Source: an uncultured Spirochaetaceae bacterium (GTDB lineage Bacteria > Spirochaetota > Spirochaetia > Sphaerochaetales > Sphaerochaetaceae). From it: a DNA stretch of 64,000 bases. Location: positions 3,461-67,460 of the forward strand of contig CAYZXD010000001.1 of assembly GCA_964482325.1 (NCBI GenBank), read 5' to 3'. The notes under the pieces are model-generated. The model searched no databases. It was not told the DNA's origin and saw only the letters and a list, made by a program, of their open reading frames with translations. Position numbers and translations under genes: made by a program. This document shows, in pieces, positions 9,234 through 42,880 of this stretch (its first letter is position 1; each line of letters starts with the position of its first letter).

Positions 9234-9279
9234 GGCAAATCAAACCATGTCCTTTCGCCTGGGATTTTCCTATTTAACG

Positions 9280-9309: not shown

Positions 9310-9315
9310 CCGCTC

Positions 9316-26343: not shown

Positions 26344-27672
26344 ATGGAAGAGCATTATCTGCAGCAGGAATTATACGATCTGGTAAAAAGTGATACCGGC
26401 ATTTTCGAGTTCATTCAATCGGGGGCTCTGGACGGTCTGTGGTATTGGGATCTGGAGCAAATCGAGCATGAATGGCTGAGTCCCAAGTTTTGGACAACAC
26501 TTGGATACGATCCTGAAGACAAAAAGCATCTTGCAAGTGAATGGCAGAATATTATCAACGAGGAAGATCTTGCTCTGTCAAAAGAAAATCTTGAGAAGCA
26601 CTGTGCCGATCCCGATTATCCCTATGATCAGATTGTACGATACAAACATAAGAACGGTTCAACTGTTTGGATACGCTGCAGAGGGATGGCCATCCGCGAC
26701 TCAATGGGAAAGCCGGTACGAATGTTGGGAGCCCATACTGACATTACCGACTTAAAAATTGCTGAAAGGGAACTCTCCCGAATATCGAGCGAATATGAAA
26801 AAGTGTTTAATGGTACACAGGATGCGGTGTTTCTGTTGCGGGTTGTCGGTCCCGGTCAATTTCGTTTTATTCGTAACAATCTTGCCCATCAACACAAAAC
26901 AGGTATTCTTGCTGATCAGATCAGGGACAAATCACCTCAAGACCTTCTTGGGGAAGAATTGGGAAATATTGTTGCAAAGAATTATCAGAAATGTGTGGAA
27001 AGTAAAAGGGTGGTGACCTACGAGGAAGAGTTAGCGCTTCCCGAAGGGACTCGGTTCTGGCAGACCACACTGACGCCCATACTTGAGCAAGGCAACGTGG
27101 CATATATCGTCGGTTCGGCGACTGATCTGACCGAACGCAAAAACCTTGAGTTTAAGCTGGAAAAATATGCCCATTATGACACGTTGACCGGAATTTCCAA
27201 TCGACGGCTGTTTTTTGAATATCTTGAGCGAATCATCTGCGAGAGGGGAGAGGAATCGCAGAAATTTTCACTACTCTATATCGATCTCGATGGATTTAAA
27301 TATGTTAATGATACGCATGGACATGAAGCGGGAGATGCGGTCCTCATTGCCATTGCGAATCGGTTGCTTCAGAGTATTCGAAATACCGACTTTGTGGCTC
27401 GTTTAGGTGGAGATGAATTTGCCGTCATTCTTAATGGTAATCAATCATTTTCTGCTGTACAACAATTCGCTATCACGTTGCATGACAAAATCGAGGAACC
27501 TATTACCATGGGTCCACTTCACCTTACCGTGAGCGCTTCCATCGGTATCGCCATATTCCCTGATTCCGGAGAGGATACGGAAACACTGATGAGAAATGCC
27601 GATGTCGCAATGTATGACATCAAGAAAAATGGAAAAGGTGGCATAAAAATCTACTCAAAGCAGGTACAGTGA
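26344..27672 (+). CDS. PAS-PAS-GGDEF diguanylate cyclase
   Basis: PAS_3 (DGLWYWD...RYKHKNGSTVWIRCRG), second PAS, DTLTGISNRR, RNTD I-site + RLGGDEF. Confidence 0.92.
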   Translation: MEEHYLQQELYDLVKSDTGIFEFIQSGALDGLWYWDLEQIEHEWLSPKFWTTLGYDPEDKKHLASEWQNIINEEDLALSKENLEKHCADPDYPYDQIVRYKHKNGSTVWIRCRGMAIRDSMGKPVRMLGAHTDITDLKIAERELSRISSEYEKVFNGTQDAVFLLRVVGPGQFRFIRNNLAHQHKTGILADQIRDKSPQDLLGEELGNIVAKNYQKCVESKRVVTYEEELALPEGTRFWQTTLTPILEQGNVAYIVGSATDLTERKNLEFKLEKYAHYDTLTGISNRRLFFEYLERIICERGEESQKFSLLYIDLDGFKYVNDTHGHEAGDAVLIAIANRLLQSIRNTDFVARLGGDEFAVILNGNQSFSAVQQFAITLHDKIEEPITMGPLHLTVSASIGIAIFPDSGEDTETLMRNADVAMYDIKKNGKGGIKIYSKQVQ

Positions 27673-27714
27673 CTTACTGCTGTCGGTTCTTCACGTTCCC
27701 GTGGTGCTTATGTC

Positions 27715-27892
27715 CGCCAGTAAATAGCTACAAATCCACGTGGTATACCTGTCGAATATCGATCAGATGTTTCATATCGTGAACTCATCATTTGATCTTG
27801 ATAAAAGGCTTATGACCCATCACGATCTATGCAGACAAGAGCATCAAAAAACTAGTGCTGATCAGGTATTTCCCATCAAACCGCTCTTCTTC
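27715..27892 (-). mobile_element. Degenerate IS1634-family transposase fragment
   Basis: Minus frame 27889-27740 reads EERFDGKYLISTS....LSA*IVMGHK......**VHDMKHLIDIRQVYH, matching the IS1634 pattern EExLDGKY...LSAExIxxGYK...E..F..LK..LDLRPVYH; three in-frame stops. Confidence 0.7.
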
Positions 27893-28077
27893 ATGAGATT
27901 ATTTAAACTCTCACACATGCCGTTGTAATTCTACCAGAGCTACAGGTATGCAGCAGGATTCTCAACCGCTGTGTTTGCGATGGACACATGGTGCACAAAT
28001 AGAGGTAGTCATCAGCCTGTTGCTCAAGTATACTTATAGCAATTGATAGGAGGATCTGTATCGCAACTGGGAATAGA

Positions 28078-28908
28078 ATGGGTAACATCTTCATCTTGCT
28101 CATTCTCATGCTATTTATGACTGTGAATATATTTGCGGGTATGCCACCAGTCAGATATTGGACGCCGGATGGCACTGATGCGATTGTTCAAAGCATACCA
28201 AAACGAGCAGAGCCCAAAATCATTCCCATCCTCTATCATAATATTGTCTATGGCAGAACGGGTAACGTGTATAACCGGGATATCTACAATTTTGAGCAGG
28301 ATCTCAAGTTTTTTAAGAAGAATTTTACTATCATCACCTTTGACGATCTCATCAGTATCACCGAAGGGACCGTAGAGCTCAATACTGATGCAGTTATCAT
28401 CACCTTTGATGATGGGGACCTCTCCATGTACGCAATTGTCTACCCCCTGCTTGTTGAATATGATATTCCTGCCACATTCTTCATTGTTCCGAGCTTTGTC
28501 GGAAAAGTGGGTTATATGAGCTGGGAACAGATCAGAGCGATGGAAGGGTATCGTAATAAAAACGGAAAGAAGCTGTTTACTTTTGAGTCGCATTCTTTAA
28601 CGCATGCACCGCTAGGCGAGCTCTCTTATACGCAGATTCTGTATGAATTAGTTGAATCAAAACGTATAATAGAACAGGAAACGTTGCAGCCTGTTTCCGT
28701 TATTGCGTTGCCTTATGGAAGTGGAGCTCAGTCCGACCAGGTGCGCAAAGCTGTGCAACACAGTGGGTATCGCATGATTCGTACATCATTCCCTTCGGCT
28801 ATCTCTCCTGACTCGATAGATCTATACAACTTATCTGCTTTCAATGTTGAAAGTTACAGTACCGATACACTGATCAAAAATATTCAGCAGATCCTGAAGA
28901 GGAGATAA
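28078..28908 (+). CDS. Exported polysaccharide deacetylase (CE4, IcaB/PgaB-like)
   Basis: Signal peptide, IPILYH, ITFDDG, ATFFIV, FESHSLTH (D-H-H triad), ALPYG. Confidence 0.9.
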   Translation: MGNIFILLILMLFMTVNIFAGMPPVRYWTPDGTDAIVQSIPKRAEPKIIPILYHNIVYGRTGNVYNRDIYNFEQDLKFFKKNFTIITFDDLISITEGTVELNTDAVIITFDDGDLSMYAIVYPLLVEYDIPATFFIVPSFVGKVGYMSWEQIRAMEGYRNKNGKKLFTFESHSLTHAPLGELSYTQILYELVESKRIIEQETLQPVSVIALPYGSGAQSDQVRKAVQHSGYRMIRTSFPSAISPDSIDLYNLSAFNVESYSTDTLIKNIQQILKRR

Positions 28909-28912
28909 TCAT

Positions 28913-29671
28913 TTGAGCCAAGGACTTCGTGCAGCTATTGTATTTTTGTTGTTCTGCATGTGTGCCCCACTGTATAGTTCTCCTGTTATTCAGCGACCGG
29001 AGAATCAAAGTTCCCGCGAAATTGACTTTTGTGGGTTTACCTGGAGAGTAAAGTCGTCCATTGTACCTGTGGCACCAGGTCCAAATATCTATCGCGGAAC
29101 TGAAGATGCAGTTTTTGTAAGTGAAAGAGGTCTCCATCTCACTATCGGAAGAGACCAGGATCACTGGTATGCTACCGAAATATTCACAAGAAAACGAGTT
29201 GGTTATGGTACTTATACTTTCACGGTTGAAACCGATGCGCTCAACTACGATCCTTCCGTGGTAGCCGGGTTTTTCACCTGGGACAGCGAACCGGTAGAGT
29301 TCAATCGGGAGATCGATATCGAGTTTGCTTCATGGGGGAGTCACGACGGAATCAGGTTCCAGTACGTTGTGCAACCGTACAGTATACCGGAAAGAATCAC
29401 CGTTTTTGATCCAAAGCTTCAGGGAAGTGTATCCACCCATCGCATTATATGGCTCGCCGACTCCGTTGAATTTTTAAGTTATCATGGGGTAGTCGATCCC
29501 GATGATCCCGAAGCTGACACCATGCTGATGAATCAATGGAAATTTATCGGGGATGTCCCATCAGAAGGAAGAACCCGATTCAGAATCAACCTATGGTTGT
29601 TCCAAGGGAAAGAACCGGCAAAACAGACTGAAATGATCTTGCGATCTTTCAAGTTCGACCCTTTGCGTTAG
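28913..29671 (+). CDS. Exported glycoside hydrolase family 16
   Basis: Signal peptide, GYGTY, GFFTW, catalytic EIDIEF motif. Confidence 0.85.
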   Translation: MSQGLRAAIVFLLFCMCAPLYSSPVIQRPENQSSREIDFCGFTWRVKSSIVPVAPGPNIYRGTEDAVFVSERGLHLTIGRDQDHWYATEIFTRKRVGYGTYTFTVETDALNYDPSVVAGFFTWDSEPVEFNREIDIEFASWGSHDGIRFQYVVQPYSIPERITVFDPKLQGSVSTHRIIWLADSVEFLSYHGVVDPDDPEADTMLMNQWKFIGDVPSEGRTRFRINLWLFQGKEPAKQTEMILRSFKFDPLR

Positions 29672-32489
29672 AGACGAAACCCTTCCGGACTTGTGCTCCC
29701 CAACCCCGGTTGCTTCTCATGGCATTGAAGTAGGAACCTACACGCCATAGACTGATGTACTGACGGATGCCAAAATTTTCCGCTATAGCCATCCCAAGGA
29801 GTCTGAAGATATCACCGGTTCCATAAAGCTCATGATCTATTTCGTTCACCCAAATGGAAAAAACACTTACAAAGATTCCGAGAAGGACCGTCGAGCTAAA
29901 GAGTAATAATGCGATCGGCAGATTGAGTAAACCGAGCATTGCAGATAGTGCGACAAAGAAAAGGCCTTGAGCCTCAATGATTGGTCCCATGAACTCAAAA
30001 ATAAAATAATATGGCATACCGATCAGACCAAGCAGTCCATAACGGGGATTAGCAATCATTGAACTGTGAAACAGCATAATATCTATCAGACCGCGATGCC
30101 ACCTGTCCCGTTGTCGATGGAGGATCTTCCAAGATTCGGGAACCTCCGTCCAGCAATTTGCGTTATAGGCGTAATTGACGCGGTAGGGAATACGCAGATC
30201 TCTCATATGCCGCGTCAACCTGACTACCAGCTCCATGTCTTCACCCACCGTATCTTTTTGAAATTTCTCACTCTTGGTTAGGTATCCTCCAGTTTGTATA
30301 GTTCTTTTCCTGTTGAAGATTCCGAACGCACCACTGATGATCAGCAGAAGATTCATATGAGCCCATCCGACCCGTCCTGACATGAATGCTCGAATATATT
30401 CCAGCGATTGAAGCCGAGGAAGGAATTTTTTTGGAATAGAAATCGTGTCTAACGATCCCATCTCAACTTCACAACCATTCACCGGACAGATATTTCCTCC
30501 AGCGGCAATTACCTCACGCTCTGAATCAATCATGGTCGACACAGCTCTGAGTAACGCGTCCGATTCTAGGAGGGAGTCAGCGTCGATGCCGCAGAAATAA
30601 CTTTTTGAGGCTACATTCAATCCCAGATTGAGTGAATCAGCTTTTCCCCCATTCACTTTATCGACAACGATCAGATTCGGTATGTGTTTCGTGGTATACA
30701 CACCACGCATCGGACGGGTCTTCAGTGTGGAGTATACGATACTATCTCGTTTTTCCAGGTGGTAATAATCAATCAAATGCTTCAGTGTGTCATCTTTTGA
30801 TCCATCATTAACGACTATCAATTCAAAATTGGGATAACGCTGATTCAATAGGGAGTTGACGCTCTCTATGATGGTAGCAGCCTCATTGTACGCTGGGGCG
30901 ATGATAGAAATCGATGGAAGGAGATGCGGAGTGAACAACATGTGATCATCCTTGCTCTGCCACAATAGTGATTGTATGTGAGCTCCTCTAATCGAAATTC
31001 CTAGGATAATCAGATACACGACATTGATGAACACTGAGTAGAACGCGAACAAATAATTAAAACGGACCACAAACAGTCTTCCGATTTCAGGCCATGGCAA
31101 GTGAACAATCTCGGTGATTTCCCAGACAATCGTGATTATAGGTGGAATAAGAAGTATCAGAAGTAGGATGATAATCAGTCGTACCCGTTGAGGCTTTTCC
31201 GCATGAGGAGGAGGCAAGTCAGTCGTCCGGTCTCCATCGGTCACAAGCAGGATTTTTTGCAATCGTGTATCAAGATACTGCCTCATCTGTGATCTGAGTT
31301 GGGAATCTGTCTTGGCAAGAGGAGTAAACGTCATGATGATTGTGTTTTCGAGAGCAGAATTTTTGTTGCGATTGAGAAAAAAGAGTATTCCACTGGTTTG
31401 CTTAACATCGACAAGCCGTTTGATAAGATCAACAATTTCATCATGTAACGGCCCATTGATCTGCAGAAGAAAATAATCGATACGTTGGTTCAGTACGCGG
31501 GCGAGCAGCAGTTGTTCTTGTTTCACTTTGGTACGACGAAAATAGTCGAGTATATCAATCATGAGGGATGGTTTATGCATGGTCATCCTGATAAGAACTC
31601 TGACAATTTCTTCATGCAGTGCTTCATGCGAGGTATATGAGAGGATCGTGGCGATATTTGTGCGTGTTTGGCTCTTTCCATAGGCACGGAGAACAGCCCC
31701 CATCACATCACGATCCCGGCTTGTCGTAAAACGTCGATGCAACAGTTGTTCAGGAAAGTGTTTGAGAAGAGCTGTCAACGCAAGCTTTTGTACAGATTTA
31801 TTCTGGGAAAGTGCTTTTTCACGGATATAGTGAAGAAATTCTTTATGTGGATAGTCAGATACATAACTGCAGATAATTCGATGCATATACGTATGGGGAT
31901 TCTTTAATTGCTTCAGCAGGTAGGGCGCCAGCATGCTACCATACGTATTTAGAACAGCCTGTAACCGAATTGCCATGTGAGGTTTTGATCGTCTGATCTG
32001 TCTTACCAATAAAGGAATTGCTGGCCTTACGTGTTGGATAGACAAGGCTTGGCCAAGATACAAGGCCACTGTTGAATTGTGTTCATTCTTGAGTGCCTCC
32101 AGCAATGAAGCTTGGATATCATCTCGTTTGAGGTATCTCAGGCCAGCAGCAGATTCGATTCTTCGAAACCGTGAACGGGAGTGAAGTCCTCTCATCAAAT
32201 GCTCCGGGATGGAGCTGGACAAAATCCGATCCTGTAGTGGCTGTAACAGGTCTTTTGGAAGCGTGATAGTATTCTGGAGATGCTTATAAGAAGCAAATAG
32301 CGATTCAGGAGGTACATCTACTCCAATTGGACTGTTGGATAGCAGATGTTTTTCAATCAACGTATCAATTTCCTTCTGGCGCACATCGCGCATTCTTCTC
32401 AGGTATTTGGTTGCTATTGTAAGGCTTATCATCACGAGATCAAATATAAATATCGATAGGGTCAGTATAATCGCAAACTGCACTTGCAT
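29649..32489 (-). CDS. HEAT-repeat domain fused to a processive GT2 polysaccharide synthase
   Basis: N-terminal TM + HEAT-like helical repeats; APAYNE, VNDGS, GGKADSLN, IDADS (DxD), GEDMEL, QRDRW (QxxRW); C-terminal TMs. Confidence 0.92.
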   Translation of the reverse strand: MQVQFAIILTLSIFIFDLVMISLTIATKYLRRMRDVRQKEIDTLIEKHLLSNSPIGVDVPPESLFASYKHLQNTITLPKDLLQPLQDRILSSSIPEHLMRGLHSRSRFRRIESAAGLRYLKRDDIQASLLEALKNEHNSTVALYLGQALSIQHVRPAIPLLVRQIRRSKPHMAIRLQAVLNTYGSMLAPYLLKQLKNPHTYMHRIICSYVSDYPHKEFLHYIREKALSQNKSVQKLALTALLKHFPEQLLHRRFTTSRDRDVMGAVLRAYGKSQTRTNIATILSYTSHEALHEEIVRVLIRMTMHKPSLMIDILDYFRRTKVKQEQLLLARVLNQRIDYFLLQINGPLHDEIVDLIKRLVDVKQTSGILFFLNRNKNSALENTIIMTFTPLAKTDSQLRSQMRQYLDTRLQKILLVTDGDRTTDLPPPHAEKPQRVRLIIILLLILLIPPIITIVWEITEIVHLPWPEIGRLFVVRFNYLFAFYSVFINVVYLIILGISIRGAHIQSLLWQSKDDHMLFTPHLLPSISIIAPAYNEAATIIESVNSLLNQRYPNFELIVVNDGSKDDTLKHLIDYYHLEKRDSIVYSTLKTRPMRGVYTTKHIPNLIVVDKVNGGKADSLNLGLNVASKSYFCGIDADSLLESDALLRAVSTMIDSEREVIAAGGNICPVNGCEVEMGSLDTISIPKKFLPRLQSLEYIRAFMSGRVGWAHMNLLLIISGAFGIFNRKRTIQTGGYLTKSEKFQKDTVGEDMELVVRLTRHMRDLRIPYRVNYAYNANCWTEVPESWKILHRQRDRWHRGLIDIMLFHSSMIANPRYGLLGLIGMPYYFIFEFMGPIIEAQGLFFVALSAMLGLLNLPIALLLFSSTVLLGIFVSVFSIWVNEIDHELYGTGDIFRLLGMAIAENFGIRQYISLWRVGSYFNAMRSNRGWGAQVRKGFVSNAKGRT

Positions 32490-32490
32490 T

Positions 32491-34524
32491 TCAGTTCTCC
32501 TCTATCTGTATGCGTTTGGCAATCATCTTTACCACTCCGATCAGCTCAACAAGGAGTACAGGGCGAAGGAAGAAATGACTGATATTCATTTCAAGTGCTC
32601 TATTTACTGTATTTTCATTCTTCACTGCGCTCATGAGGAGAAATGGGATATTCCTTGTCTCAGGATTATTCAGCAACTCCTTACGAAGCGTGATAGCGTT
32701 GATCTTTTCCACCATAAGCTCACTTATGATGATGTCCGGGAGCTCCGTCTGAATCTGAAGTTTAGCTAACAGACCGTTATCCGCAATGAAGACCTGAAAC
32801 CCTTCACGTATCAATTCTTTCTTGATCAGTTCACGTCCCAGACCTGGCGGATCAATCAGCAGCACGGTATGGAGAGATTTTTCACCCAGGGGGACTATTG
32901 AGGAGGAAACTAGGATTCTTCCACCTCGTTTCTGAGCAAGTCGTAGTCTGAATTGAGTTGTCTGAACCATCACGGCTTTCAGTTGTTCTTCATCATTTTG
33001 CAGGGAATCAGGAAACTCATGGGAACAGAAAATACCTCCGGAAATGGTTATCGGGACTATGAATGCCTCAGAATCGGAAACTGTATGTATCAATTTCTCA
33101 ACTTCCTCAATCACGTCTGATCCTGCAAGATTCACCGTATAGAGACCAAAAACACTTCCAGCTAAACGAAATACTTTGCAGTCAAACGAAAGATGCCGTT
33201 CGATTATGAAGGTGAGATTCCTTAAGGTTGCATCCCCCTCAGAACTTCCGAAATCGATATTGATCTGAGCAAGATTGTCTACACTCAACATAACACAGCA
33301 GATACTTTGTTTTTCTGAAATCATCTGATGTATGATCTCAGTAATGAAGAGATTATGGACATTCTGATTGTAAAGGCCGGTAACTGCATCTCGAGAGAGG
33401 CTTTCCTGCAGTTCGTTCAACCGTAACTCCAAGCTTGATCGCTCCTTTTCCAAGTTATCAATTTGTATCGACTGCGAAGATATAATACTGCTTGCCTCAA
33501 ACGCCTGAGTTCTGAATACTTTCGGAAGAGGAATTGCATATGATTTACTGAGCATTTCAGCTGTCGGGGCAATGATCGTTATCCATTCGAGACCCTTTTT
33601 CTCTAATACCAAGTTGAAAAAGGTCTCCCAAATATCCTCATCTTGTGTCTTACATGAGGTCACTTCCCGTGTTGCATCATCGAACTGAAATGCAGAATCG
33701 TTGAACAATTGCTGGACATCGGTCAACGTGTAAGTTGCCAGATATCGTTTTACAATCTGGTTGCAAAGGGCAAGATACCCTCCCGCTTCCATGAGGTCTT
33801 TTTTTACGAGATCGAGGAATAGTCCACAAGAGAGATCCCTGAGAATCTCAATATGACGACGAGGATTCTTAGTGATAATTGAGCCATGTTGTGGACAAAT
33901 CATTGAAATATCATATTGAAGCAATGTATCCATAGTTGATTTAAGGATGGCATGAGAAGGCATGTAGGTCTCATGAAATGTCTTCATGGCTTCCTCATAA
34001 TCAGGACCGGCATAGAGATTCCACTGTTTGGTGACTGCACCGAAAACATCACCGGAGAGAAGGACCTTCTGTTGAGGAAGATAGGTCATGATTGCTCCGG
34101 GGAAATGGAGATAAGGAGTAAAAATAAACTCGATGGAGGACCCGTCGACCAACGGAAATCGATAATTTTGCAAATTCACGTGGTAGAATGATCTGTGTAC
34201 GCCATAATAGGAAATAATCAAGGATGCCCGAGTGTGACAGCAATACACCCCTTTGAACCCATGCTTTTCAAATAGCGGGAGAGAGGAACAGAGATCGGGA
34301 TCTTGATGGCTACAGACAATCGCATCAAGTTTTTGTATGGGAACAAGTTGTTGTACTTTGTGAGAAACAATTTCAAAATCAAGCACTGATCCGGCATCGA
34401 ACAGGATTGCACTCTTTCCCTGTAATAGAAGAAAGGGGTTGCATTGGAGATTCCTCTTTGTATCATTCACCCCAACCCACCAGAGCCCATCAGTTATCGG
34501 AATTGGATTGGTACTTTCTGTCAT
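32491..34524 (-). CDS. ODP-type di-iron (MBL-fold) sensor + degenerate GGDEF + atypical receiver
   Basis: SHQDPD, HFPG, SGDVFG, PQHG; coiled coil; DAVTGLYN...SVDNLAQINIDFGSSEGD with RLAGSVF in place of RxGGDEF; REC with ISELM (phospho-Asp replaced by Glu). Confidence 0.85.
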   Translation of the reverse strand: MTESTNPIPITDGLWWVGVNDTKRNLQCNPFLLLQGKSAILFDAGSVLDFEIVSHKVQQLVPIQKLDAIVCSHQDPDLCSSLPLFEKHGFKGVYCCHTRASLIISYYGVHRSFYHVNLQNYRFPLVDGSSIEFIFTPYLHFPGAIMTYLPQQKVLLSGDVFGAVTKQWNLYAGPDYEEAMKTFHETYMPSHAILKSTMDTLLQYDISMICPQHGSIITKNPRRHIEILRDLSCGLFLDLVKKDLMEAGGYLALCNQIVKRYLATYTLTDVQQLFNDSAFQFDDATREVTSCKTQDEDIWETFFNLVLEKKGLEWITIIAPTAEMLSKSYAIPLPKVFRTQAFEASSIISSQSIQIDNLEKERSSLELRLNELQESLSRDAVTGLYNQNVHNLFITEIIHQMISEKQSICCVMLSVDNLAQINIDFGSSEGDATLRNLTFIIERHLSFDCKVFRLAGSVFGLYTVNLAGSDVIEEVEKLIHTVSDSEAFIVPITISGGIFCSHEFPDSLQNDEEQLKAVMVQTTQFRLRLAQKRGGRILVSSSIVPLGEKSLHTVLLIDPPGLGRELIKKELIREGFQVFIADNGLLAKLQIQTELPDIIISELMVEKINAITLRKELLNNPETRNIPFLLMSAVKNENTVNRALEMNISHFFLRPVLLVELIGVVKMIAKRIQIEEN

Positions 34525-37500
34525 CTTTTCTCCTTGAAATATCTTTGTAATATGGAATAACTTTCCTTGATTCGTTCACGGTATCGTGGGTAGTTCCATG
34601 GTTGCCACGGTAGAAATCCAACTGATTCATCAGCCGCAGTACCAAAGTTCCCGACAACCTGCCGACTCTCTTTTTCTACCACGACTGCTGATACTCTGAT
34701 CCCTTCTGAGAGCTTCGTGTGCAACACATCACGAGGGGGATCGGTATTAAAAGTCCTGTCATCATCCAGAACTCGACCTGATGATGGATCTGAAACATTG
34801 ATCCTTCCCCAAGGTATCCTGAGAGTGATTGCAGATCCCGTATGCAACCAATGATTGGTTGCTCCCTCCTGATGCCCATAACGCAGTGAAGACGATTCTT
34901 CATACCGTGCAGGGATTGGAGTAAGATCCGGTAAAGCTCTGGCCCGATTGATGAGTTTATGCATGGAAACGAACAGGCCTCTTGATTCAAGTCCTTCATA
35001 GGAGGAAAAGCGATATTGAGTACTGTTAGCGGGGGGAATAGCGAGCAGTCTTGCCGTCGTTGTTCCATCAAGAACCACCATAAATTCCATACCAGAGAGA
35101 GATTGGAGGGCAATATCAGGCCCATAGCTTAACTCACCTCTGTCTCGAGCGTAGGTATCGATACCGATCATAACTGCATGCTTATCAAAATCGATAGAAT
35201 CAGCAAAATCCATATCAATGTGGAGGTATGATGCATCCAGAGAGAGTCCAACCGCACTGATCATGTTATTATTGAGTGTAATCAATGTACTTCGTCGTTC
35301 TGGTTTAACTGCTTCTAAAGCAAGGATGCCGTAGTTCTGTTCAGGGTCGATGGTATTGTGCCAGAGAATCTGTCGGTCATAGGGAATCATATACGGTTCT
35401 GTTGTCCAAGTCTTCTTTGCCCATTCATCCATCCATTCGAAGATGATGCCTCCGGCATATCCTTCCCTCCGCATTGCTTCAAACATTCTGATGATCCCAT
35501 ATCCCTGTTCCTGTTCGGTCATGGAGCCATGATGATATCCATCAGGATTTTCATGAGCATTGCCCATACCAGTTGCCAACCCGAATTCAGCTACAACTGC
35601 AGGATAAGCCTTATGGTCTTCCATGAATTCTCTCAGGTAACCCCCATACCGAAACCGTCCCCGGTCATCCTGATACTCATCGTACAAAGGATCATTGTTC
35701 ATAAAATCGGGGTAGTTCGGATAAATATGGTAGGCTCCGAAGATGCCGGTTTTCAATTTTTCACCTGGCAATATATTGTTGATGTTCACCGTGGTGTAAT
35801 CATTCATTTCGAATACTTTTTTCCCCTCTTCATTGCGTTCAGATGGATGATCGATGGGATCAAGTGTCGGCCAGTTTACTATCGCGACTGGATGTTGCCA
35901 TCCATAACGATTTTCTTCATAGGCAAGCGTGTAATCCATACTGGAGGCAAGCCATACCTCCGTAGGAGAGGCTTCAGGACGGGTAGTGATATAAGCTCCG
36001 CTGAAACGGACATTTGGGTTTTTTCGATCCGTCTCAAAAACTTCATGTGGTTCCAGTTCTCTTCCAACGAGATATCCCAAGACATAAGCGGATACGTCAC
36101 TCGTATAATTCCCCCAGGCTCTCCCTCGACGTTCCGGAATAACTGCATTACCATGAACAGCATCAATGACATGACGAATTTCCTGTTCAAATGCAACTTG
36201 ATAGCTCTCTTTTAAGTAATTCTCTTCTTCAGGATATTCCTCCGGCCAGATTTCCTGCATAAGATATAACTGGGTCGCTGGATTGAGCTGATTGTACAGC
36301 AGTAGAGCATCGTAGAACATGGGGTCGAGCAACGTATAGATTCGAATGGTATTCACGCCCAACTCCCCAATCTGTTCGAGCCACCGATAGTACAAGGACT
36401 TGTCTTGCGGGAAATCAGTGAACCACTTGCCCGGCATTGCTATACCGATATTTATTCCATGGATAAATAGATCTTCCCATTGATTATTACGCCAGGTCTG
36501 CAACCTCTTCCCTTCTGTTCGTGAAACCATCATAGTACCGTCAACTTGCGTAGAGGTACGAGTACTCTTTCTGATCGGGGTCTCTTTTCGTTCCCTTGTT
36601 TCTTTGGCAATCGACTGCATCAACGGAAGATACAGATGCCAAAAAAAGCTCTTTTCATTTTCGATGGAATTGGGTATCGCTGTACGCATCACCGATGAAA
36701 GCCCGGCGAGGTAGGGGAAGTTTATTGGGCGTGAGCTGAAGGCCCAGTTGCCGGCAAGATAATAGGTGCTGTGGTAGGCTGTTTCCCCTCGAATAATTGC
36801 AGGAAATGTAGGACTCAGTCCGACCTCTTTAAGCATCTGTTCGCCTTTTTCATGTACGTCCAAGGTGTATGTGGCTAGTACTTCAGCCCCTGAAAGCGGT
36901 TCTACAATATCGAACTGTATGGGTACTTGATATATACCGGAAAGACCGAGAGCAGTCTCTCCTTCTGGAGTAAAAGCGAACTGATTTGCCAGAGGACCAA
37001 TTTCCTTGCCCATGGTTAAAACTAAAAAATCATCATCCGTATTGAAGAGGACAAATCCGCTTCCTGTATAGTTCCAGATTGCTCCCGATTTTTTTTCATA
37101 CTCATCAGGTATCCAGGAGGGCACATCACCCGATCTTGAAAGATCAATAACATAGGTTCCTGTCCAGCCAGTCCACCGGGAACGGAACATCTCATAGAGC
37201 TGGGTCTGAATATAGGGTGGCGTAGGAGTGGCGAATGTATTGTATTCAGCGATGATGGTATTCGGCATGTCCCGGTTCAAAAAAGCTCTCAGGGTATCAA
37301 CATCTTCCTGCTTCATCCCTCCATATAGCAGATTGCTGCCAACCTGGTCGGATTGCCCACGAATGAACCCCTCTCCTTCACGATAGACCCCGTATGTATC
37401 GGAGATATAGACGATATCCAGATCATCAGGAAGTGGTCCCAGTGGTACTATATCGCTGTCCCCGGAAGGTAGGAGATGCCGCCCCCTGTAGGAAATCGGC

Positions 37501-37790
37501 ATCTGGTGTCGTACTCCCGATTCGTTAAACATCTTCGAGTGATGTAAAAACCATGCAAGACCTGCATGATGTTGAACCGGCAATGCAGGGACTGTCTTGG
37601 TGTAAACCAATAGGGAAACAGGAACAGTGGGTGTAATCACCCAGATCACAAATGGTGATATCAATAGCAGGAACACTAGTACTGCTATAATAATGAGAGG
37701 ATTCTTTTGATATTCACCGGGAGTGGTTAATTTATCCCCTTTTTTCTTTCGCATATACAAACAGTATAAATTAGTCTTATCTCCTTTCAT
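34521..37790 (-). CDS. 1089-aa membrane-anchored protein: N-terminal extracytoplasmic domain + clan GH-A-like TIM-barrel glycoside hydrolase
   Basis: Single N-terminal TM; GINIG, GVNTIRIYT, GRELEP, VVAEFG, GGIIFEWMDEWAK; ATGA overlap with the next gene; start uncertain (37790 or 37754). Confidence 0.75.
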   Translation of the reverse strand: MKGDKTNLYCLYMRKKKGDKLTTPGEYQKNPLIIIAVLVFLLLISPFVIWVITPTVPVSLLVYTKTVPALPVQHHAGLAWFLHHSKMFNESGVRHQMPISYRGRHLLPSGDSDIVPLGPLPDDLDIVYISDTYGVYREGEGFIRGQSDQVGSNLLYGGMKQEDVDTLRAFLNRDMPNTIIAEYNTFATPTPPYIQTQLYEMFRSRWTGWTGTYVIDLSRSGDVPSWIPDEYEKKSGAIWNYTGSGFVLFNTDDDFLVLTMGKEIGPLANQFAFTPEGETALGLSGIYQVPIQFDIVEPLSGAEVLATYTLDVHEKGEQMLKEVGLSPTFPAIIRGETAYHSTYYLAGNWAFSSRPINFPYLAGLSSVMRTAIPNSIENEKSFFWHLYLPLMQSIAKETRERKETPIRKSTRTSTQVDGTMMVSRTEGKRLQTWRNNQWEDLFIHGINIGIAMPGKWFTDFPQDKSLYYRWLEQIGELGVNTIRIYTLLDPMFYDALLLYNQLNPATQLYLMQEIWPEEYPEEENYLKESYQVAFEQEIRHVIDAVHGNAVIPERRGRAWGNYTSDVSAYVLGYLVGRELEPHEVFETDRKNPNVRFSGAYITTRPEASPTEVWLASSMDYTLAYEENRYGWQHPVAIVNWPTLDPIDHPSERNEEGKKVFEMNDYTTVNINNILPGEKLKTGIFGAYHIYPNYPDFMNNDPLYDEYQDDRGRFRYGGYLREFMEDHKAYPAVVAEFGLATGMGNAHENPDGYHHGSMTEQEQGYGIIRMFEAMRREGYAGGIIFEWMDEWAKKTWTTEPYMIPYDRQILWHNTIDPEQNYGILALEAVKPERRSTLITLNNNMISAVGLSLDASYLHIDMDFADSIDFDKHAVMIGIDTYARDRGELSYGPDIALQSLSGMEFMVVLDGTTTARLLAIPPANSTQYRFSSYEGLESRGLFVSMHKLINRARALPDLTPIPARYEESSSLRYGHQEGATNHWLHTGSAITLRIPWGRINVSDPSSGRVLDDDRTFNTDPPRDVLHTKLSEGIRVSAVVVEKESRQVVGNFGTAADESVGFLPWQPWNYPRYRERIKESYSILQRYFKEKR

Positions 37791-38114
37791 ACCGAAAAAA
37801 ACAATTTGTGGGATAAGTCCTGTAATAATGAAAGATTACCAGAAAATGACCAATCCAGAAGAACCTTTTTACACTACTCTGAATTACTTCTGGAGCAACT
37901 CACTGTATCAAAAGATAAATATTTGCTAATTAGTAAAATATTAGTGATTATATATAGTAATAAATATGCTATAATATGCACTATCATATGGGAACATATA
38001 GAGAGTCCCATTACTTCGGAACCGACACAAACACCTGAGCCAATACTAAGCAGAATTGATGGGACACATACAGAGAAGAGTAAATAAGCTCCGAAGAGAC
38101 GGAGAAAGAATGAG

Positions 38115-39143
38115 CTACAACAAATAAATTTCTTTATCGATGAACAGATCGACAAGTTGTGGATCAAATTGTTTTCCGGAACAGAGTTTGAGTTCCTCTA
38201 TGGCCAGTTCTGTGGGCAATGCTGAACGATAAGCCCGATTACTCGTCATCGCATCATAAGCATCAGCAAGTGCCACAATTCTTACATCAAGAGGAATCTC
38301 AGAGCCTTTCAGTCCGTCGGGGTATCCTTTTCCATCCATTCGCTCATGGTGGCTTCGTATGATCGGACGATATTCCTGGAACAGATCAATATGTCCGATG
38401 ATTCTCTCTCCGGAAATCGGATGCATATGGATAATTTCCATCTCTTCATCGGTGAGTTTTCCCTTCTTGTTCAGAATTTCCTCTGAAATACCGACCTTCC
38501 CGATGTCGTGAAGCAATGCACCCCCTTCAAGGATAGACAGGTGCTCTTCCGAGAAGTTCAGAGCCTTTCCTAAAGCGATAGCGATGTTGCGTACCCGATG
38601 ACAATGTCCTTTTGTGTAAGAATCTTTTTGCTCGATGGTTTCAGAAAAAGCTTCCAATGTGGCACGAGTGGTATTCTTCAGAGCGGATAAGGCCTGTCTG
38701 AGATTACTCTCCAATGTTTTTTGGTAATCGCGGTTTTGTGCCAGTGAAGCCAACTGTTCCCGATGAACCACCGATTTGGAGAGTGTCCGATCGACGCAAT
38801 CGAGTAGCGTCTCACGTTTTACCGGTTTCGTCAGATAATCTGAAGCTCCCGCTCTGATTGCTTTCATCCCGGTATCCAGGTCATTAAATGCGGTCAGCAT
38901 TACTACCGGAAGAGCGGGGTGATGTTGCTGTATCATCTCAAGCACATCAAATCCTGAGGGACCAGGCATCTTAATATCAAGGAGTACCAGATCTACATGA
39001 TTTCCCTCTGTAGCAAGGACTTCTTTCAACTCATATCCATTTTGACAGGGAGTGACATCATAGCCCTGCTTAGTCAGAAAGAGCTGCAGGACCTTTCGTA
39101 TTGCCGGGTCGTCATCTGTCGTCACGATATGTCTGTTCATCAT
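38115..39143 (-). CDS. REC-HD-GYP response regulator (RpfG-like c-di-GMP phosphodiesterase)
   Basis: Intact receiver (DDD, LLDIKMPG, MLTA, LTKP); GHCHRV, HDVGK, HHERMDGKGYP, ADAYDAMTS. Confidence 0.93.
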   Translation of the reverse strand: MMNRHIVTTDDDPAIRKVLQLFLTKQGYDVTPCQNGYELKEVLATEGNHVDLVLLDIKMPGPSGFDVLEMIQQHHPALPVVMLTAFNDLDTGMKAIRAGASDYLTKPVKRETLLDCVDRTLSKSVVHREQLASLAQNRDYQKTLESNLRQALSALKNTTRATLEAFSETIEQKDSYTKGHCHRVRNIAIALGKALNFSEEHLSILEGGALLHDIGKVGISEEILNKKGKLTDEEMEIIHMHPISGERIIGHIDLFQEYRPIIRSHHERMDGKGYPDGLKGSEIPLDVRIVALADAYDAMTSNRAYRSALPTELAIEELKLCSGKQFDPQLVDLFIDKEIYLL

Positions 39144-39676
39144 TCATTTCTCCATAGACGCCTACTGAACGACAGCACTAATGGTGTGTGTTGTTTATAT
39201 TTGTCGTATCCGGCAAAAATTTTTGGAAAGATAATGATGTCTTCAAGCATGACCAGTACAAAATTACACAGAATCAGACCCAAACACAGCAAAGTAATTC
39301 CCACATCCCAAAAGAATACTGCTACCAGCAGGTTAACGATAGTATACCAGAGAAAGCCCGGATGTCGAGAAAAACTATAGGTCCCTTGTGTATACAATTG
39401 ACCGGAACGCGATGAAAAAAGGGCTGTCTCGATAAAAACTGAATAGATAAGGAGGATGACGAAACATCCGATTATCACCAATAATCCCAAAGAAAAGAGA
39501 GTTTTATGGGGAGAACGATAGGAATAAAAGAGGAAGATATAAGGAACTGCAGTAAGGAAAAAGCCTAGAGAAAAAAGCTTTTTCATGAATGATTTGTCGT
39601 ACAATATCGCAATATCATACATCCCTACTAATAAATATCCTGCTAATCCAAGCATAAATAGTTTGAAATTTTCCAT
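39140..39676 (-). CDS. ICMT/PEMT-family membrane methyltransferase
   Basis: About 5 TM; LYTQGTYSFSRHPG and ED...F...Y..Y...TP family motifs; overlaps the HD-GYP start. Confidence 0.78.
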   Translation of the reverse strand: MENFKLFMLGLAGYLLVGMYDIAILYDKSFMKKLFSLGFFLTAVPYIFLFYSYRSPHKTLFSLGLLVIIGCFVILLIYSVFIETALFSSRSGQLYTQGTYSFSRHPGFLWYTIVNLLVAVFFWDVGITLLCLGLILCNFVLVMLEDIIIFPKIFAGYDKYKQHTPLVLSFSRRLWRNE

Positions 39677-39733
39677 TGCCTGCATAATAATAATACAAGT
39701 TATATACATTTGAAAAGTGTAAAAGGATAGCTC

Positions 39734-42700
39734 ATGATCATCGACATTTCGACCATTATTCCTGCTGTGGCCTTCATACTTTATGTATCGTTTGCAGTAT
39801 TCGGTTTTTCGCAGTACAAGAAGGACCGGTTCTATTGGTCATTCCAGCTTTATATGGTGCTTTTCTCCATTTGGAGTTTTGGTTCCATGATGATGCACCT
39901 CAACAGTGGAATCCTTACTCCCTTGTTCTGGAACAAAGTGATGCTGGTAGGGTTGTTATCTGCCTCGTTTGCATTGAGCAACTTTATCCTCGACATTCTG
40001 AATCTTCACACTAAACCGATAAGACGATTTATCTATGCGAGTTATCTCCTGATTATTCCCCTGACTTATCTTAATGTGACCGGCTACATCGTCCATGACG
40101 CAGGGTTTCGTCCCGATGGATCATTCTTCTATGAGTTGGGTCCCGGAGCAATCTTTGCCTATTCAATAACGTACGTCTATTTGATTTTTACTCTGATCAT
40201 GCTGCTGTTTCGTACGAAATATCGTCCCCTGAAAGAGGAGCATAAGAATCTGATTCTTCCGCTGGTTGGTGTGTTGATTATGCTGATCGGAATATTCATC
40301 AATGTATATCCTCCTCTGGGTAAATATCCGGTTGATATCTTTACTGCTACGATCAATGCGGTCCTGTTGTTCTACACCATCTACAAATTCAAGCTGATAA
40401 ACTATTCACTATTGGCCTTGAAAATCATTTATTCTACCTTTCTCGCGATCGCTGCGTCCATTTCATATTATGTGATCATTGTTTTCTTACGCATATTCAA
40501 TCCGGCCTTTGTTCCCGGTGATGCATTCCAATTCTCTTTTGTGCTCGGAATTGCCACCGTCATCGTGATACAACCCCTGAGGAACCTGTTTTCCTATCTT
40601 GTAGACAACGTAATCATTCCAAGAAGGCACCCCTACCAGACAACCATCAAGAAACTGAGCAAACGATTGACGACTATCGTAAATCTCAGAGAACTCGGCG
40701 AAGAGGTTGTGAGTAATCTGAGTACCGGTCTGAAAACAGAATGGGTGCTTTTTGTTGCCAAGAGAAGCAATACAGCCGATGCTTTTACCTTGATTGCCAA
40801 TAGTAACTGTCCTACAGAATTACGTATTGGGCAAGAGGTTGTATTTGCCTTTTCCAATCAGGTCAACGATAGGTTGCAGCGTTTGCAACGGGAAAATATT
40901 TCTTCAATTCTGAGTGTAAAACCTGATGAACCCCGATTTGAAGTGAGTGACCAGTTGCCTGAAGTCGATGTATTGATTCCCCTTGTTTTTCGGGAACAGA
41001 TAGCAGGGTATATCGTCATTGGATTTGATCGTACCAAGAGCCTCATAACATCAGTCGAAATGGAAGCGCTGGAAATATTAGCTTCCCAGAGTTCTCTCTC
41101 ATTGGAGAACGCGCTCTCCTTCGAAAAGTTGCGGATACAGGGTGACGAATTGACTATGAGTAAGAACAAATTAGAAGCAATCTTCAATGGTATCGCTTCT
41201 CCCGTGTGTCTGATCGATATCGATTATTCTATCCAGGAAGCCAATACCGCTGCAGTAAATCTTTTTGGAAACAATAGAAAAGAGCTTATTGGAAAAAAAT
41301 GTTATCGTGAATTTTTTCATCGTGCCAAGCCATGTCGCTACTGTCAGGCAATGGAATGTCTCCATTCCGGTATTGTGCAGGAGACAGAAGTGGAAGTTTC
41401 TGACAGCATCTACTCGTTCCAGTTCCATAATGTACGGGTCCCGGAAAATTCCAAAAGTGTGTTTATTGAGATTATTCACGATATCACCGAACAAAAGAAT
41501 TTCCAGGAAGAATTGGTAAGAACCGAGAAAATGGCAAGTGTCGGTACCCTTGTAGCGGGAATTGCACATGAATTGAACAATCCTCTTGCTGGGATTTATG
41601 GTACCGCTGAAGTCATGCTCACCGAAGTTGAGGAAGCACATCCGCACCATGAATATCTCACAGATATTCTCAGTTATGCAAAAACTGCCGCAGATGTAAT
41701 ACAGGAATTGACCACATACTCCCGCAAGAAAGAGTTGACTGAAGTGCAACAGGTCGACCTGATTAAGGTGCTGGAGTTCTCCCTGAGGCTTGCAATGCGT
41801 GGCGTTGACTCCTCCGGCATTGAAGTAAAACGGAATTATCATGCACTTCCGGTGTTGGAGGCGAATGAAGGAAGTCTGCAACAGTTATTTCTCAATTTGA
41901 TTGTGAATGCCATACAGGCGATGGAAGGGGAGGGAACCTTGACCCTTACCTGCTTTGAAAAGGATGAGTTCGTCCATATTAAAATCGGAGATACCGGCTG
42001 TGGTATTTCAGAGAAAAATCTCAACCAGATATTTACTCCATTTTTTACCACAAAAGCTCCTGGAAAAGGCACCGGATTAGGCTTATCCAATTGCTATGGC
42101 ATCGTAGAAAAAATGGGCGGCCGTATCAGAGTGCGCAGTGAAGTTGATGTCGGTTCTGAGTTCTCCACGATATTCCCTCTGAGCGATGAAGGACGGGATG
42201 TGATCCGGTTCGTTCTGGTAAATGATCAGGTTGGTATGAACGATGTCTTTTTTCTCCAGCGTAAAGTACTCGTAGGAGAGAAGGGGTATATGGAGGAGAC
42301 CATTCATCGGGCCGAAGATGAAAAGGCTACGCATATTCTGGCATTTAAAGGGCTGCACCCAGTGGGGACCGTTTCTCTGATGACCTCTGATACCTGTTGG
42401 CCGCTTCCCATTTCACGTTACTTTAACATTGATTCGGTTCTGCATTCGAAAAAGTGTTCCGAATTTATTCGTTTGGCCGTCCTGCCCGAGATGCGCAATA
42501 CCTCGGTATCTCTTGGTCTGATCGTACTCGTATTCCTTCTTGCACGAAGCAGAGGAGTGGAGGACATGATCATCGATGTGTTTGCCGATGACAAAAAGAC
42601 CATCAAACTATATAAAAAATTCGGTTTCAGAGAAGTCGGCACCTATTATTCTCCTTCGGCGGTTACCGTATTGGCTTTGCAGGAAAAAACTACCATGGAA

Positions 42701-42880
42701 GGTGATAAGAGTCAGTTGCGTCACTTTGTGCGTCCATTATTCAAACGGCTCAAGCCCCTGTTCGATTTTGGCAAGGATACCCAGGGAGTCTTAGATGAAA
42801 TGGATAAGATTTTAAGTATCGATACCGATTATGTTGCAAAAGATCAAACTGATTCCGATGAAGAATTTGAAGTTAGTTGA
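39734..42880 (+). CDS. 7TM-GAF-PAS histidine kinase fused to a C-terminal GNAT (N-acyl amino acid synthase/LuxI-fold) domain
   Basis: HisKA_7TM-like N-terminus, GAF, PAS, AHELNNPL H-box, NLIVNA, DTGCG, FFTTK.PGKGTGLG; then FFLQRKV..GEKGY...VGTVSL...SEFIRLAV...LYKKFGF. Confidence 0.88.
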   Translation: MIIDISTIIPAVAFILYVSFAVFGFSQYKKDRFYWSFQLYMVLFSIWSFGSMMMHLNSGILTPLFWNKVMLVGLLSASFALSNFILDILNLHTKPIRRFIYASYLLIIPLTYLNVTGYIVHDAGFRPDGSFFYELGPGAIFAYSITYVYLIFTLIMLLFRTKYRPLKEEHKNLILPLVGVLIMLIGIFINVYPPLGKYPVDIFTATINAVLLFYTIYKFKLINYSLLALKIIYSTFLAIAASISYYVIIVFLRIFNPAFVPGDAFQFSFVLGIATVIVIQPLRNLFSYLVDNVIIPRRHPYQTTIKKLSKRLTTIVNLRELGEEVVSNLSTGLKTEWVLFVAKRSNTADAFTLIANSNCPTELRIGQEVVFAFSNQVNDRLQRLQRENISSILSVKPDEPRFEVSDQLPEVDVLIPLVFREQIAGYIVIGFDRTKSLITSVEMEALEILASQSSLSLENALSFEKLRIQGDELTMSKNKLEAIFNGIASPVCLIDIDYSIQEANTAAVNLFGNNRKELIGKKCYREFFHRAKPCRYCQAMECLHSGIVQETEVEVSDSIYSFQFHNVRVPENSKSVFIEIIHDITEQKNFQEELVRTEKMASVGTLVAGIAHELNNPLAGIYGTAEVMLTEVEEAHPHHEYLTDILSYAKTAADVIQELTTYSRKKELTEVQQVDLIKVLEFSLRLAMRGVDSSGIEVKRNYHALPVLEANEGSLQQLFLNLIVNAIQAMEGEGTLTLTCFEKDEFVHIKIGDTGCGISEKNLNQIFTPFFTTKAPGKGTGLGLSNCYGIVEKMGGRIRVRSEVDVGSEFSTIFPLSDEGRDVIRFVLVNDQVGMNDVFFLQRKVLVGEKGYMEETIHRAEDEKATHILAFKGLHPVGTVSLMTSDTCWPLPISRYFNIDSVLHSKKCSEFIRLAVLPEMRNTSVSLGLIVLVFLLARSRGVEDMIIDVFADDKKTIKLYKKFGFREVGTYYSPSAVTVLALQEKTTMEGDKSQLRHFVRPLFKRLKPLFDFGKDTQGVLDEMDKILSIDTDYVAKDQTDSDEEFEVS

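Follow-up and report, generated by a model that had tools for sequence, protein, structure and literature searches.

A locus of five genes in the genome of an uncultured Spirochaetaceae bacterium (GCA_964482325.1; family Sphaerochaetaceae in GTDB) probably encodes a synthase-dependent polysaccharide system, from a family for which we found no published description. It lies on contig CAYZXD010000001.1, in the stretch of 64,000 nucleotides (positions 3,461 to 67,460, forward strand) that is called the window here and whose numbering is used throughout. According to the list of open reading frames (ORFs), three genes are on the minus strand: BIG, for a membrane-anchored periplasmic protein of 1089 aa (34521-37790); OGR, for a cytoplasmic sensor/regulator of 677 aa composed of an ODP domain, a degenerate GGDEF domain and a degenerate receiver (REC) domain (32491-34524); and a HEAT-GT2 synthase gene (29649-32489, 946 aa). 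Two are on the plus strand: a CE4 polysaccharide deacetylase gene (28078-28908, 276 aa) and the gene of a GH16-like secreted hydrolase (28913-29671, 252 aa). The system is real, widespread and of the synthase-dependent kind, and is unstudied as far as the literature that we found is concerned. No publication describing the HEAT-GT2/ODP-GGDEF-REC module was found in a literature search that covered a minority of the subscription journals.

The genes are closely packed. BIG and OGR overlap by 4 nt (ATGA) and OGR is separated from the synthase gene by 1 nt, while on the other strand 4 nt separate the CE4 gene from the GH16-like gene, which converges on the synthase gene with an overlap of 23 nt. 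The initial annotation of this DNA had listed these five genes with their domains, with a translationally coupled minus-strand trio converging on the deacetylase and the GH16-like gene, and all of this is present at these coordinates. It had also reported the lack of PilZ, TPR and porin genes, and Pfam searches of the cluster and the flanking genes gave the same result.

In the synthase, Pfam matches to Glycos_transf_2, Glyco_tranf_2_3 and a patch of Chitin_synth_2 cover residues 528-863. The residues D562 (in NDGS), D636-x-D638, G749-E-D751 and Q793-R-x-R-W797 are invariant in alignments of 12 and 46 homologues, as is a C-terminal G-W-G...R-K-G-F; in the window protein these read D636-A-D638, Q793-R-D-R-W797 and G-W930-G...R-K-G937-F. 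Since this set of motifs (D, DxD, GED, QRxRW) is that of processive GT2 synthases, we assign the protein to them. Its best NCBIfam match is PgaC_IcaA (TIGR03937; 110.1 bits, E=1e-31, cutoff 422.3), followed by a XrtG-associated glycosyltransferase and NodC (44 bits), all far under their cutoffs, and it reaches 23.6 bits against the CelA model, whose cutoff is 699.

The AlphaFold2 (AF2) model of the synthase (pLDDT 87.6) has seven-odd transmembrane (TM) helices. An N-terminal helix (TM1, aa 5-27) is followed by an all-helical repeat arm predicted to be cytoplasmic (aa ~60-415, nt 31245-32312), a disordered linker, two further helices (TM2-3), the GT-A catalytic domain (aa 525-810, nt 30060-30917) and about four C-terminal helices, which precede the invariant tail. 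The predicted helices at 435-512 and 815-924 therefore stand before and after the catalytic domain. The arm was confirmed as HEAT by the synthase family profile, which matches designed HEAT (alphaRep) proteins over residues 94-200 (E=2e-19); together with the Pfam result this bears out the HEAT-GT2 fusion proposed earlier. In Foldseek, the hyaluronan synthases CvHAS/XlHAS1 rank first (E=1e-10, TM-score 0.62 on target), then Chs1 and BcsA, with alignments that span 480-590 columns. This ranking leaves a lipid or protein glycosyltransferase without support, as do the processive motifs and the C-terminal TM helices; no in-silico criterion favors that alternative, which the initial annotation had named as a possible refutation. 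We thus identify the protein in silico as a predicted processive, membrane-embedded GT2 synthase-translocase of the PgaC/NodC/hyaluronan/chitin-synthase type, with a cytoplasmic HEAT arm of about 350 aa. One copy is found in the source genome. A Sphaerochaeta metagenome-assembled genome (MAG) carries two complete paralogous five-gene clusters (L011, JBFWKK010000047.1, and L013, JBFWKK010000021.1), each with BIG, sensor and synthase genes and convergent GH16-like and CE4 genes; their synthases are 55% and 51% identical to that of the window.

The partner protein OGR contains, according to Pfam, an ODP domain (PF19583, 184 bits, cutoff 27), a GGDEF domain (48 bits) and a Response_reg domain. The ODP di-iron domain (aa 24-237, nt 33814-34455, minus strand) is followed by a coiled-coil linker, the GGDEF domain (aa 370-516, nt 32977-33417) and the pseudo-receiver (aa 553-670, nt 32515-32868). 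Over its full length, the ODP domain aligns with the solved structures 6qrq/6qwo (E=2.9e-24) and 6qnm/6r9n (E=1e-16), which we take to be the ODPs from Treponema denticola and Thermotoga maritima, and its ligand motifs HQDPD, LH(F/S), SGD and PQHG match those of the solved ODPs one for one. OGR thus carries in silico all the ligand motifs of the solved O2/Fe(II)-sensing ODPs, and its metal site, with H73, D75 and H213 among the predicted di-iron ligands, looks intact. The same ligands (HQDPD, LH, SGD, PQHG) are lost, with the pairing to the synthase kept, in Acholeplasmataceae/Mariniplasma loci (L064, L072, L076, L079) and in Spirochaetaceae MAGs (L032, L036, L062, L082), so that all three domains of the partner are degenerate there.

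The other two domains of OGR are degenerate also in the window, where AGSVF stands in place of GGDEF, RxxD is missing and the receiver has the sequence IISELM, with Glu602 at the position of the phospho-acceptor. The ODP domain, the loss of the GGDEF motif and the replacement of the acceptor Asp agree with the description as a putative O2-sensor pseudo-cyclase. From related loci, 71 partner proteins were aligned. GG[DE]EF is found in none of them (0/71), and neither is RxxD at the position of the inhibitory site (I-site; 0/71); conservation of the active site (A-site) is likewise absent, and the guanine-binding Asn is not conserved. The acceptor of the receiver is Glu in the great majority, with Ser/Thr and Lys conserved. 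Retention of either site in the GGDEF domain was rejected, both being lost family-wide. A direct role of this domain as receptor of c-di-GMP (cyclic diguanosine monophosphate) is accordingly not supported by the family alignment, and the analogy with PelD, YdaK and PssE, suggested earlier, was not upheld.

Synthase homologues of about 950 aa amount to 1933 proteins among 8000 candidates scored, and at least 598 species (one genome per species) have a relative of this synthase. They include Sphaerochaetaceae, Treponema, Rectinemataceae, a Leptospira biflexa MAG, Acetobacterium, Clostridium and Desulfitobacterium, besides Trichococcus, Carnobacteriaceae, Acholeplasmataceae, Thermotogaceae, Fibrobacteria and Veillonellaceae; Neomarinimicrobiota, Romboutsia and a Bacteroidales MAG are also among the homologues. 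For the comparison of loci, tblastn was run with domain pieces and all ORFs of 85 loci were clustered. Seventy loci had 2.1 kb or more of DNA upstream of the synthase gene. In 69 of them the automatic count found the sensor gene immediately upstream and in the same orientation, usually stop-on-start, and 35 of these show an overlap of 4 nt. The seventieth (L053) has the sensor gene too, and was missed because the start of the GT2 ORF had been called too far upstream. The pairing spans Spirochaetota, Bacillota, Thermotogaceae, Fibrobacteria and Neomarinimicrobiota.

The core pair is therefore not special to spirochaetes and occurs in hundreds of mostly anaerobic species. The initial annotation knew of no such system in spirochaetes; this stands insofar as we found no publication. 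Outside the spirochaetes, the core is present in Bacillota, Thermotogaceae, Fibrobacteria, Veillonellaceae and Neomarinimicrobiota. The conserved order of the genes in many genomes indicates that the cluster is more than a product of chance, and the co-occurrence that had been in question is thus observed. The full set of five genes was found in 11 other loci, all from Sphaerochaetaceae, Pleomorphochaeta or unclassified spirochaete MAGs. Elsewhere, other accessory genes accompany the pair, such as a TPR+YaiO beta-barrel gene (L004:6459-7736, minus strand), a candidate for a PgaA/BcsC-like exporter, a TPR gene (L035:6382-7887, plus strand) and a GH42M-like+CE4 fusion (L026:14180-15964, plus strand).

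BIG has no sequence match in Pfam, NCBIfam or the PDB. Its AF2 model (pLDDT 84.7) comprises a TM helix after a basic N-terminus (aa 29-52, nt 37635-37706), an N-terminal alpha/beta module (aa 59-400, nt 36591-37616), a TIM barrel of clan GH-A (aa ~443-830, nt 35301-36464) and a C-terminal beta-sandwich (aa 831-1075, nt 34566-35300), all on the minus strand. In Foldseek, a GH157 endo-beta-1,3-glucanase comes first (E=3e-12), followed by GH2 glucuronidases and by GH5 glucanases and mannanases, with probability 1.0, and a search of a viral fold library again returned the TIM-barrel hydrolase fold. The residues R483, E578, H688, Y690, E735 and W790 are invariant in 35 homologues. E578, the predicted acid/base, follows strand 4 of the model (570-575) and E735, the predicted nucleophile, is within strand 7 (731-736); Arg577 is found where clan GH-A usually has Asn before the acid/base, the signature being otherwise GH5-like. 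From the model, BIG is identified as a putative inner-membrane-anchored periplasmic enzyme of clan GH-A with an intact Glu/Glu pair.

The Pfam scan of the 35 homologues gave two weak matches to GH72 and none to other GH family models. Of 794 homologues, 120 were listed; most of these bear no source name, the others are all called 'hypothetical protein', and none has Pfam domains. Judging from Pfam, NCBIfam and the PDB, BIG would be a glycoside hydrolase family without Pfam or CAZy-type assignment. Over the 410 central residues of BIG, identity between phyla is 50-78%, and a short form of about 700 aa is devoid of the N-terminal module. Two homologues have one in-frame TGA each (G019:C29:97076-100294 and G059:C188:4218-6227) and may be pseudogenes or sequencing errors, and one Spirochaetes MAG (L054) has two BIG paralogues, at 6887-10102 and in a second ORF of 880 aa downstream.

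BIG adjoins the pair in 36 of 53 loci with full flanks (about two thirds), either upstream or downstream: it precedes the pair in Sphaerochaetaceae (BIG-sensor-synthase) and follows it in Treponema-type and Bacillota loci (sensor-synthase-BIG). Its distribution in the window's own family, with BIG in 10 of the 61 genomes sampled and in 5 genera out of 30, is likewise patchy and that of an accessory gene. BIG as an obligatory co-polymerase similar to BcsB was rejected, being missing in 13 of the 15 genomes that have the pair with no BIG beside it. The L026-type accessory genes (455 aa, and the GH42M-like+CE4 fusion of 595 aa) were also rejected as BIG homologues (hhalign probability <1%).

The GH16-like protein has a signal peptide and a catalytic E133-I-D135-I-E137-F. 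It has no Pfam match above threshold, some of its close homologues carrying PF00722 or the NCBI name 'family 16 glycosylhydrolase'. The motif EIDIEF (ExDxE) is invariant in 16 homologues, and the family profile matches the 1,3-1,4-beta-glucanases (lichenases 1gbg/1mac) of Bacillus/Paenibacillus with the catalytic motif aligned (E=2e-7); based on these matches and on PF00722 in the close homologues, the 252-aa protein is assigned to GH16. With the barrel of BIG, which rests on the AF2 model and Foldseek, both hydrolases announced for this locus are recovered. The GH16-like gene is beside the synthase in 18 loci; two of these are from Veillonellaceae, one is from another spirochaete and the rest are from Sphaerochaetaceae. 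In loci of the Acetobacterium type, the sensor gene has a canonical GH16 gene (PF00722, E=1e-24) immediately upstream, so that GH16 was recruited twice independently. Homologues of the divergent form have been publicly named 'membrane-bound serine protease (ClpP class)' or 'serine protease', as in Sphaerochaeta pleomorpha str. Grapes (L003:12819-13550); the EIDIEF motif and the GH16 profile match indicate a mis-annotation.

The CE4 protein has an N-terminal hydrophobic signal or anchor, LYHN, and the metal/catalytic motifs TFDDGD and SHxxTH, the latter two invariant in 12 orthologues. It matches Polysacc_deac_1 in Pfam (E=5e-21), and its best NCBIfam matches are PgaB (TIGR03938; 61.7 bits, cutoff 321.9, covering only the N-terminal 100 model positions) and then IcaB (TIGR03933; 52.3 bits, cutoff 248), in agreement with the earlier description as IcaB-like. 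It is found in 12 of 85 loci, always behind the GH16-like gene, in Sphaerochaetaceae, Pleomorphochaeta or unclassified spirochaete MAGs; in L026, L034 and L066 a different CE4-containing gene accompanies the pair. The CE4 and GH16-like genes are thus the Sphaerochaetaceae version of the system, and their products are predicted to be secreted partners with intact catalytic motifs.

We suggest the following mechanism for this synthase-dependent system. The di-iron domain of OGR would sense O2 or Fe(II), as characterised ODPs do, and the coiled-coil linker with the fossil GGDEF and receiver domains would dock on the HEAT arm and set the synthase on or off at the post-translational level, with neither phosphorylation nor c-di-GMP bound at an I-site; an invariant FLNKNxNxExE patch (aa 371-381) may belong to this interface. 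A uridine diphosphate (UDP) sugar, most likely UDP-N-acetylglucosamine (UDP-GlcNAc), either by itself or together with another sugar, would be polymerised by the synthase to a beta-linked chain, which would leave through the channel of the enzyme itself. Partial de-acetylation of the chain by the CE4 enzyme would follow in the periplasm, as would its trimming or transglycosylation by the GH-A and GH16-like enzymes, which is what BcsZ, PslG and the C-terminal domain of PgaB do in known systems. The best matches of the GT2 and CE4 proteins point to poly-GlcNAc, and the polymer is most likely a GlcNAc-containing beta-glycan. More tentatively, and with a probability that we place well short of even, this could be an undescribed exopolysaccharide (EPS) class of at least 598 species in about five phyla, mostly anaerobes, where a di-iron O2/Fe(II) sensor is wired through a fossil GGDEF/receiver to the HEAT arm and the matrix is switched by oxygen or iron without c-di-GMP or phosphorylation; the Sphaerochaetaceae version would add a new GH-A family, a GH16 and a PgaB-type deacetylase, and make a partly de-acetylated GlcNAc-containing beta-glycan of new structure.

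Several observations weigh against this interpretation. The ODP ligands are lost in some lineages (loci of the Acholeplasmataceae type and of the L032 type) and the entire ODP domain is lost in Romboutsia, L070 and L077, so O2/Fe sensing cannot be the universal input. BIG is absent anywhere from 13 of the 15 genomes that have the pair but no adjacent BIG, which makes it a frequent accessory and not part of the minimal machine. The folds of the hydrolases (lichenase-like GH16, GH157, and GH72-like in 2 of 35 BIG members) point to beta-1,3 or beta-1,4 glucans. An outer-membrane export component is absent from this locus, as judged by Pfam for cluster and flanks. Finally, an intact diguanylate cyclase and an intact HD-GYP protein flank the operon, which leaves room for a link to c-di-GMP.

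The nature of the polymer is where two of the competing explanations lie. In one of them, which we consider unlikely, the product is a beta-1,3 or mixed beta-1,3/1,4 glucan, the GH16-like and GH157-like proteins act on it as dedicated glucanases or transglycosylases, and the CE4 enzyme removes O-acetyl groups or is unrelated. The GH16-like protein indeed aligns best to 1,3-1,4-beta-glucanases, with EIDIEF in common, the best fold match of BIG is an endo-beta-1,3-glucanase, two BIG homologues weakly match the beta-1,3-glucanosyltransferases of GH72, and GH16 was recruited twice. However, similarity of glycoside hydrolases at the fold level does not fix the substrate, and the synthase itself speaks for GlcNAc: it scores 110 bits with PgaC/IcaA and 44 with NodC against 24 with CelA, its best structural matches are the GlcNAc-using hyaluronan and chitin synthases, and the known bacterial mixed-linkage synthases RiGT2 and BgsA are BcsA-like, unlike this one (PMC10374906, PMC5567048). 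A GlcNAc-containing beta-glycan other than beta-1,6 poly-N-acetylglucosamine (PNAG) would reconcile the hints from GT2 and CE4 with those from the hydrolases, a glucan being the less likely product.

Somewhat less probable still is a divergent Pga/Ica-type system, where the GT2 makes poly-beta-1,6-GlcNAc, the CE4 protein is the equivalent of PgaB/IcaB and the extra genes are decoration of the lineage. The best NCBIfam matches of both proteins would be explained, and the N-terminal LYHN of the CE4 protein presumably resembles the permuted His motif of PgaB/IcaB known from the PgaB structure. Against it, the proteins stay well under the cutoffs of the equivalog models (110 vs 422, 62 vs 322 and 52 vs 248), there is no PgaD/IcaD, PgaA porin, IcaC or GH153 domain, the CE4 gene is restricted to the Sphaerochaetaceae subset (12 of 85 loci), and the hydrolases are GH16 and GH-A and not the GH20/GH153 that cut beta-1,6-GlcNAc. 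We give a similarly low probability to control by c-di-GMP, made by the neighbouring cyclase, removed by the REC-HD-GYP protein and bound by the degenerate GGDEF domain, the HEAT arm or the C-terminal tail. Both enzymes are intact, the adjacency of HD-GYP recurs in two related loci (L006 and L028), and in Pel, Yda and Pss the receptor is as a rule a degenerate GGDEF protein (PMC8461298, PMC7112168). Yet the RxxD I-site or a conserved A-site is found in 0/71 family members, Pfam detects no PilZ or MshEN domain, no c-di-GMP riboswitch was found, and the two neighbours are not conserved across the family. The least probable, and in our view quite unlikely, is that the polymer is a periplasmic or wall-associated glycan rather than an EPS. 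It would explain the missing outer-membrane exporter in Sphaerochaeta. In its favor, the window locus has no porin or TPR gene, and a periplasmic or membrane-anchored location is predicted for each of the three processing enzymes. Against it, the core is accompanied in other diderms by genes of the kind typically seen in EPS export (TPR+YaiO-barrel or TPR), and is found in monoderm Bacillota too.

Regarding the flanks, the predicted c-di-GMP phosphodiesterase REC-HD-GYP (38115-39143, minus strand) has an intact D56, HD and HHExxDGxGYP and was assigned by Pfam, and the predicted PAS-PAS-GGDEF diguanylate cyclase (26344-27672, plus strand; Pfam GGDEF E=1e-48) has intact GGDEF and RxxD motifs, in the sequence RNTDFVARLGGDEF (RNTD....GGDEF). 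A homologue of REC-HD-GYP was found beside the module only in L006 and L028, which makes the regulatory linkage weak, and the cyclase gene is in no ORF cluster common to related loci. A terminator-like hairpin (38089-38104) ends the upstream HD-GYP unit and is followed by the leader or promoter region of the BIG-OGR-GT2 operon, A+T-rich and 324 nt long (37791-38114, minus strand); the operon therefore appears to be a transcription unit of its own. Promoter calls upstream of BIG were not above the shuffled background, and no c-di-GMP riboswitch or other Rfam family matched at E<=1 in 27000-40000.

Beyond the HD-GYP gene, and overlapping it, there is an ICMT-like methyltransferase gene (39140-39709), divergent from a gene (39734-42880, plus strand) for a histidine kinase of 1048 aa with 7TM and PAS regions and a C-terminal FeeM/GNAT-like acyltransferase domain (Pfam FeeM E=4e-10). 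These two genes may represent a signal-synthase/kinase circuit beside the polysaccharide operon. On the other side, 3 kb from the cluster, we found an ordinary membrane H+-pyrophosphatase (23180-25330, plus strand; Pfam H_PPase E=4e-246), with no link to it.

Synthase-dependent EPS systems, such as those of cellulose, PNAG, Pel and alginate, have a central place in the biology of biofilms, and c-di-GMP gates nearly all of them. The module would add a widespread family with another control logic, an O2/iron sensor coupled to the synthase by pseudo-enzyme domains, as well as a synthase architecture with a HEAT arm that was not previously described and a glycoside hydrolase family lacking Pfam or CAZy-type assignment. 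It also makes an adaptor role of degenerate GGDEF and REC domains testable. The main carriers are anaerobes that live in sediments, digesters or the gut (Sphaerochaeta, Treponema, Acetobacterium, Clostridium, Thermotogaceae and Fibrobacteria), for which a protective matrix triggered by oxygen, if true, would be ecologically meaningful. What is newly given here is the five-gene version of Sphaerochaetaceae, the double recruitment of GH16, the assignment of BIG to GH-A with its catalytic signature, and its status as an accessory.

The initial annotation held that this list of parts resembles none of the known EPS systems, and we agree: none of the tested defining features of Pga, Ica, Bcs, Pel, Yda and Pss was found here, and neither the comparison with hidden Markov models (HMMs) nor the literature that we found gave a match to a characterised locus. 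The closest are the poly-beta-1,6-GlcNAc systems PgaABCD of E. coli and IcaADBC of staphylococci, with a processive GT2 synthase-translocase of the same sub-group (best HMM), a CE4 enzyme of the PgaB/IcaB type and a hydrolase in the system. The window cluster differs from them by having no PgaD/IcaD, PgaA porin, IcaC or GH153, and by a synthase with a HEAT arm of 350 aa, an ODP-GGDEF-REC partner with degenerate GGDEF and REC domains, and GH16 and GH-A as hydrolases; its proteins fall short of the Pga/Ica equivalog cutoffs by a factor of four to five. The operon is so tightly packed that there is no room for PgaD or other extra genes, no IcaD-like or acyltransferase (IcaC) genes were found in the cluster or its flanks by ORF list and Pfam, and the second domain of PgaB (GH153) is absent from the CE4 protein, which has 276 aa and a single domain.

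Cellulose (Bcs) and mixed-linkage glucan synthases differ more, as Pfam finds no PilZ in the window cluster and the CelA score is far under its cutoff. RiGT2, the mixed-linkage glucan synthase of Romboutsia, is BcsA-like with a C-terminal PilZ domain (PMC10374906), and BgsA is BcsA-like with its own C-terminal c-di-GMP-binding domain (PMC5567048). Identity of our system with RiGT2 was rejected, since the Romboutsia homologue is a separate HEAT-GT2 preceded by a GGDEF-REC protein. Class I hyaluronan synthases and the chitin synthases/NodC share the catalytic and TM fold (TM-score 0.62) and the motifs D, DxD, GED and QRxRW, but identity is about 16%, and the window synthase has the HEAT arm, the sensor partner and a bacterial operon with periplasmic processing enzymes. 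Its C-terminal WG...RK presumably resembles the gating-loop motif of hyaluronan and chitin synthases. Among the hydrolases, PslG (GH39) and BcsZ (GH8) are comparable to BIG in being periplasmic, linked to a synthase and dispensable in many lineages, and PslG shares the TIM barrel of clan GH-A. BIG differs in having no sequence family match and an extra N-terminal alpha/beta module of 340 aa, with GH157, GH2 and GH5 as its nearest folds.

For OGR, BcsE of E. coli-type cellulose secretion is the nearest parallel, a cytoplasmic regulator made of dead receiver and GGDEF domains and dedicated to one polysaccharide synthase. BcsE presumably binds c-di-GMP through an RxxD I-site, in contrast with OGR, which has none, has the order GGDEF-REC and a fused ODP domain, and whose proposed target would be the HEAT arm and not BcsA-PilZ/BcsQ. 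PelD, YdaK (B. subtilis ydaJKLMN) and PssE (Listeria pssA-E) are also degenerate GGDEF proteins encoded with a glycoside hydrolase in the synthase operon. However, they are membrane-bound and keep the I-site, while OGR is soluble, without I-site, and has the ODP and degenerate REC domains; their synthases differ as well, PelF being a GT4, and YdaM and PssC being without a HEAT arm, unlike the window synthase, a GT2 with such an arm. The known ODPs, for their part, are single-domain proteins that signal to chemoreceptors, whereas the ODP of OGR is part of a fusion with a degenerate GGDEF and a degenerate REC domain, and is linked with a polysaccharide synthase.

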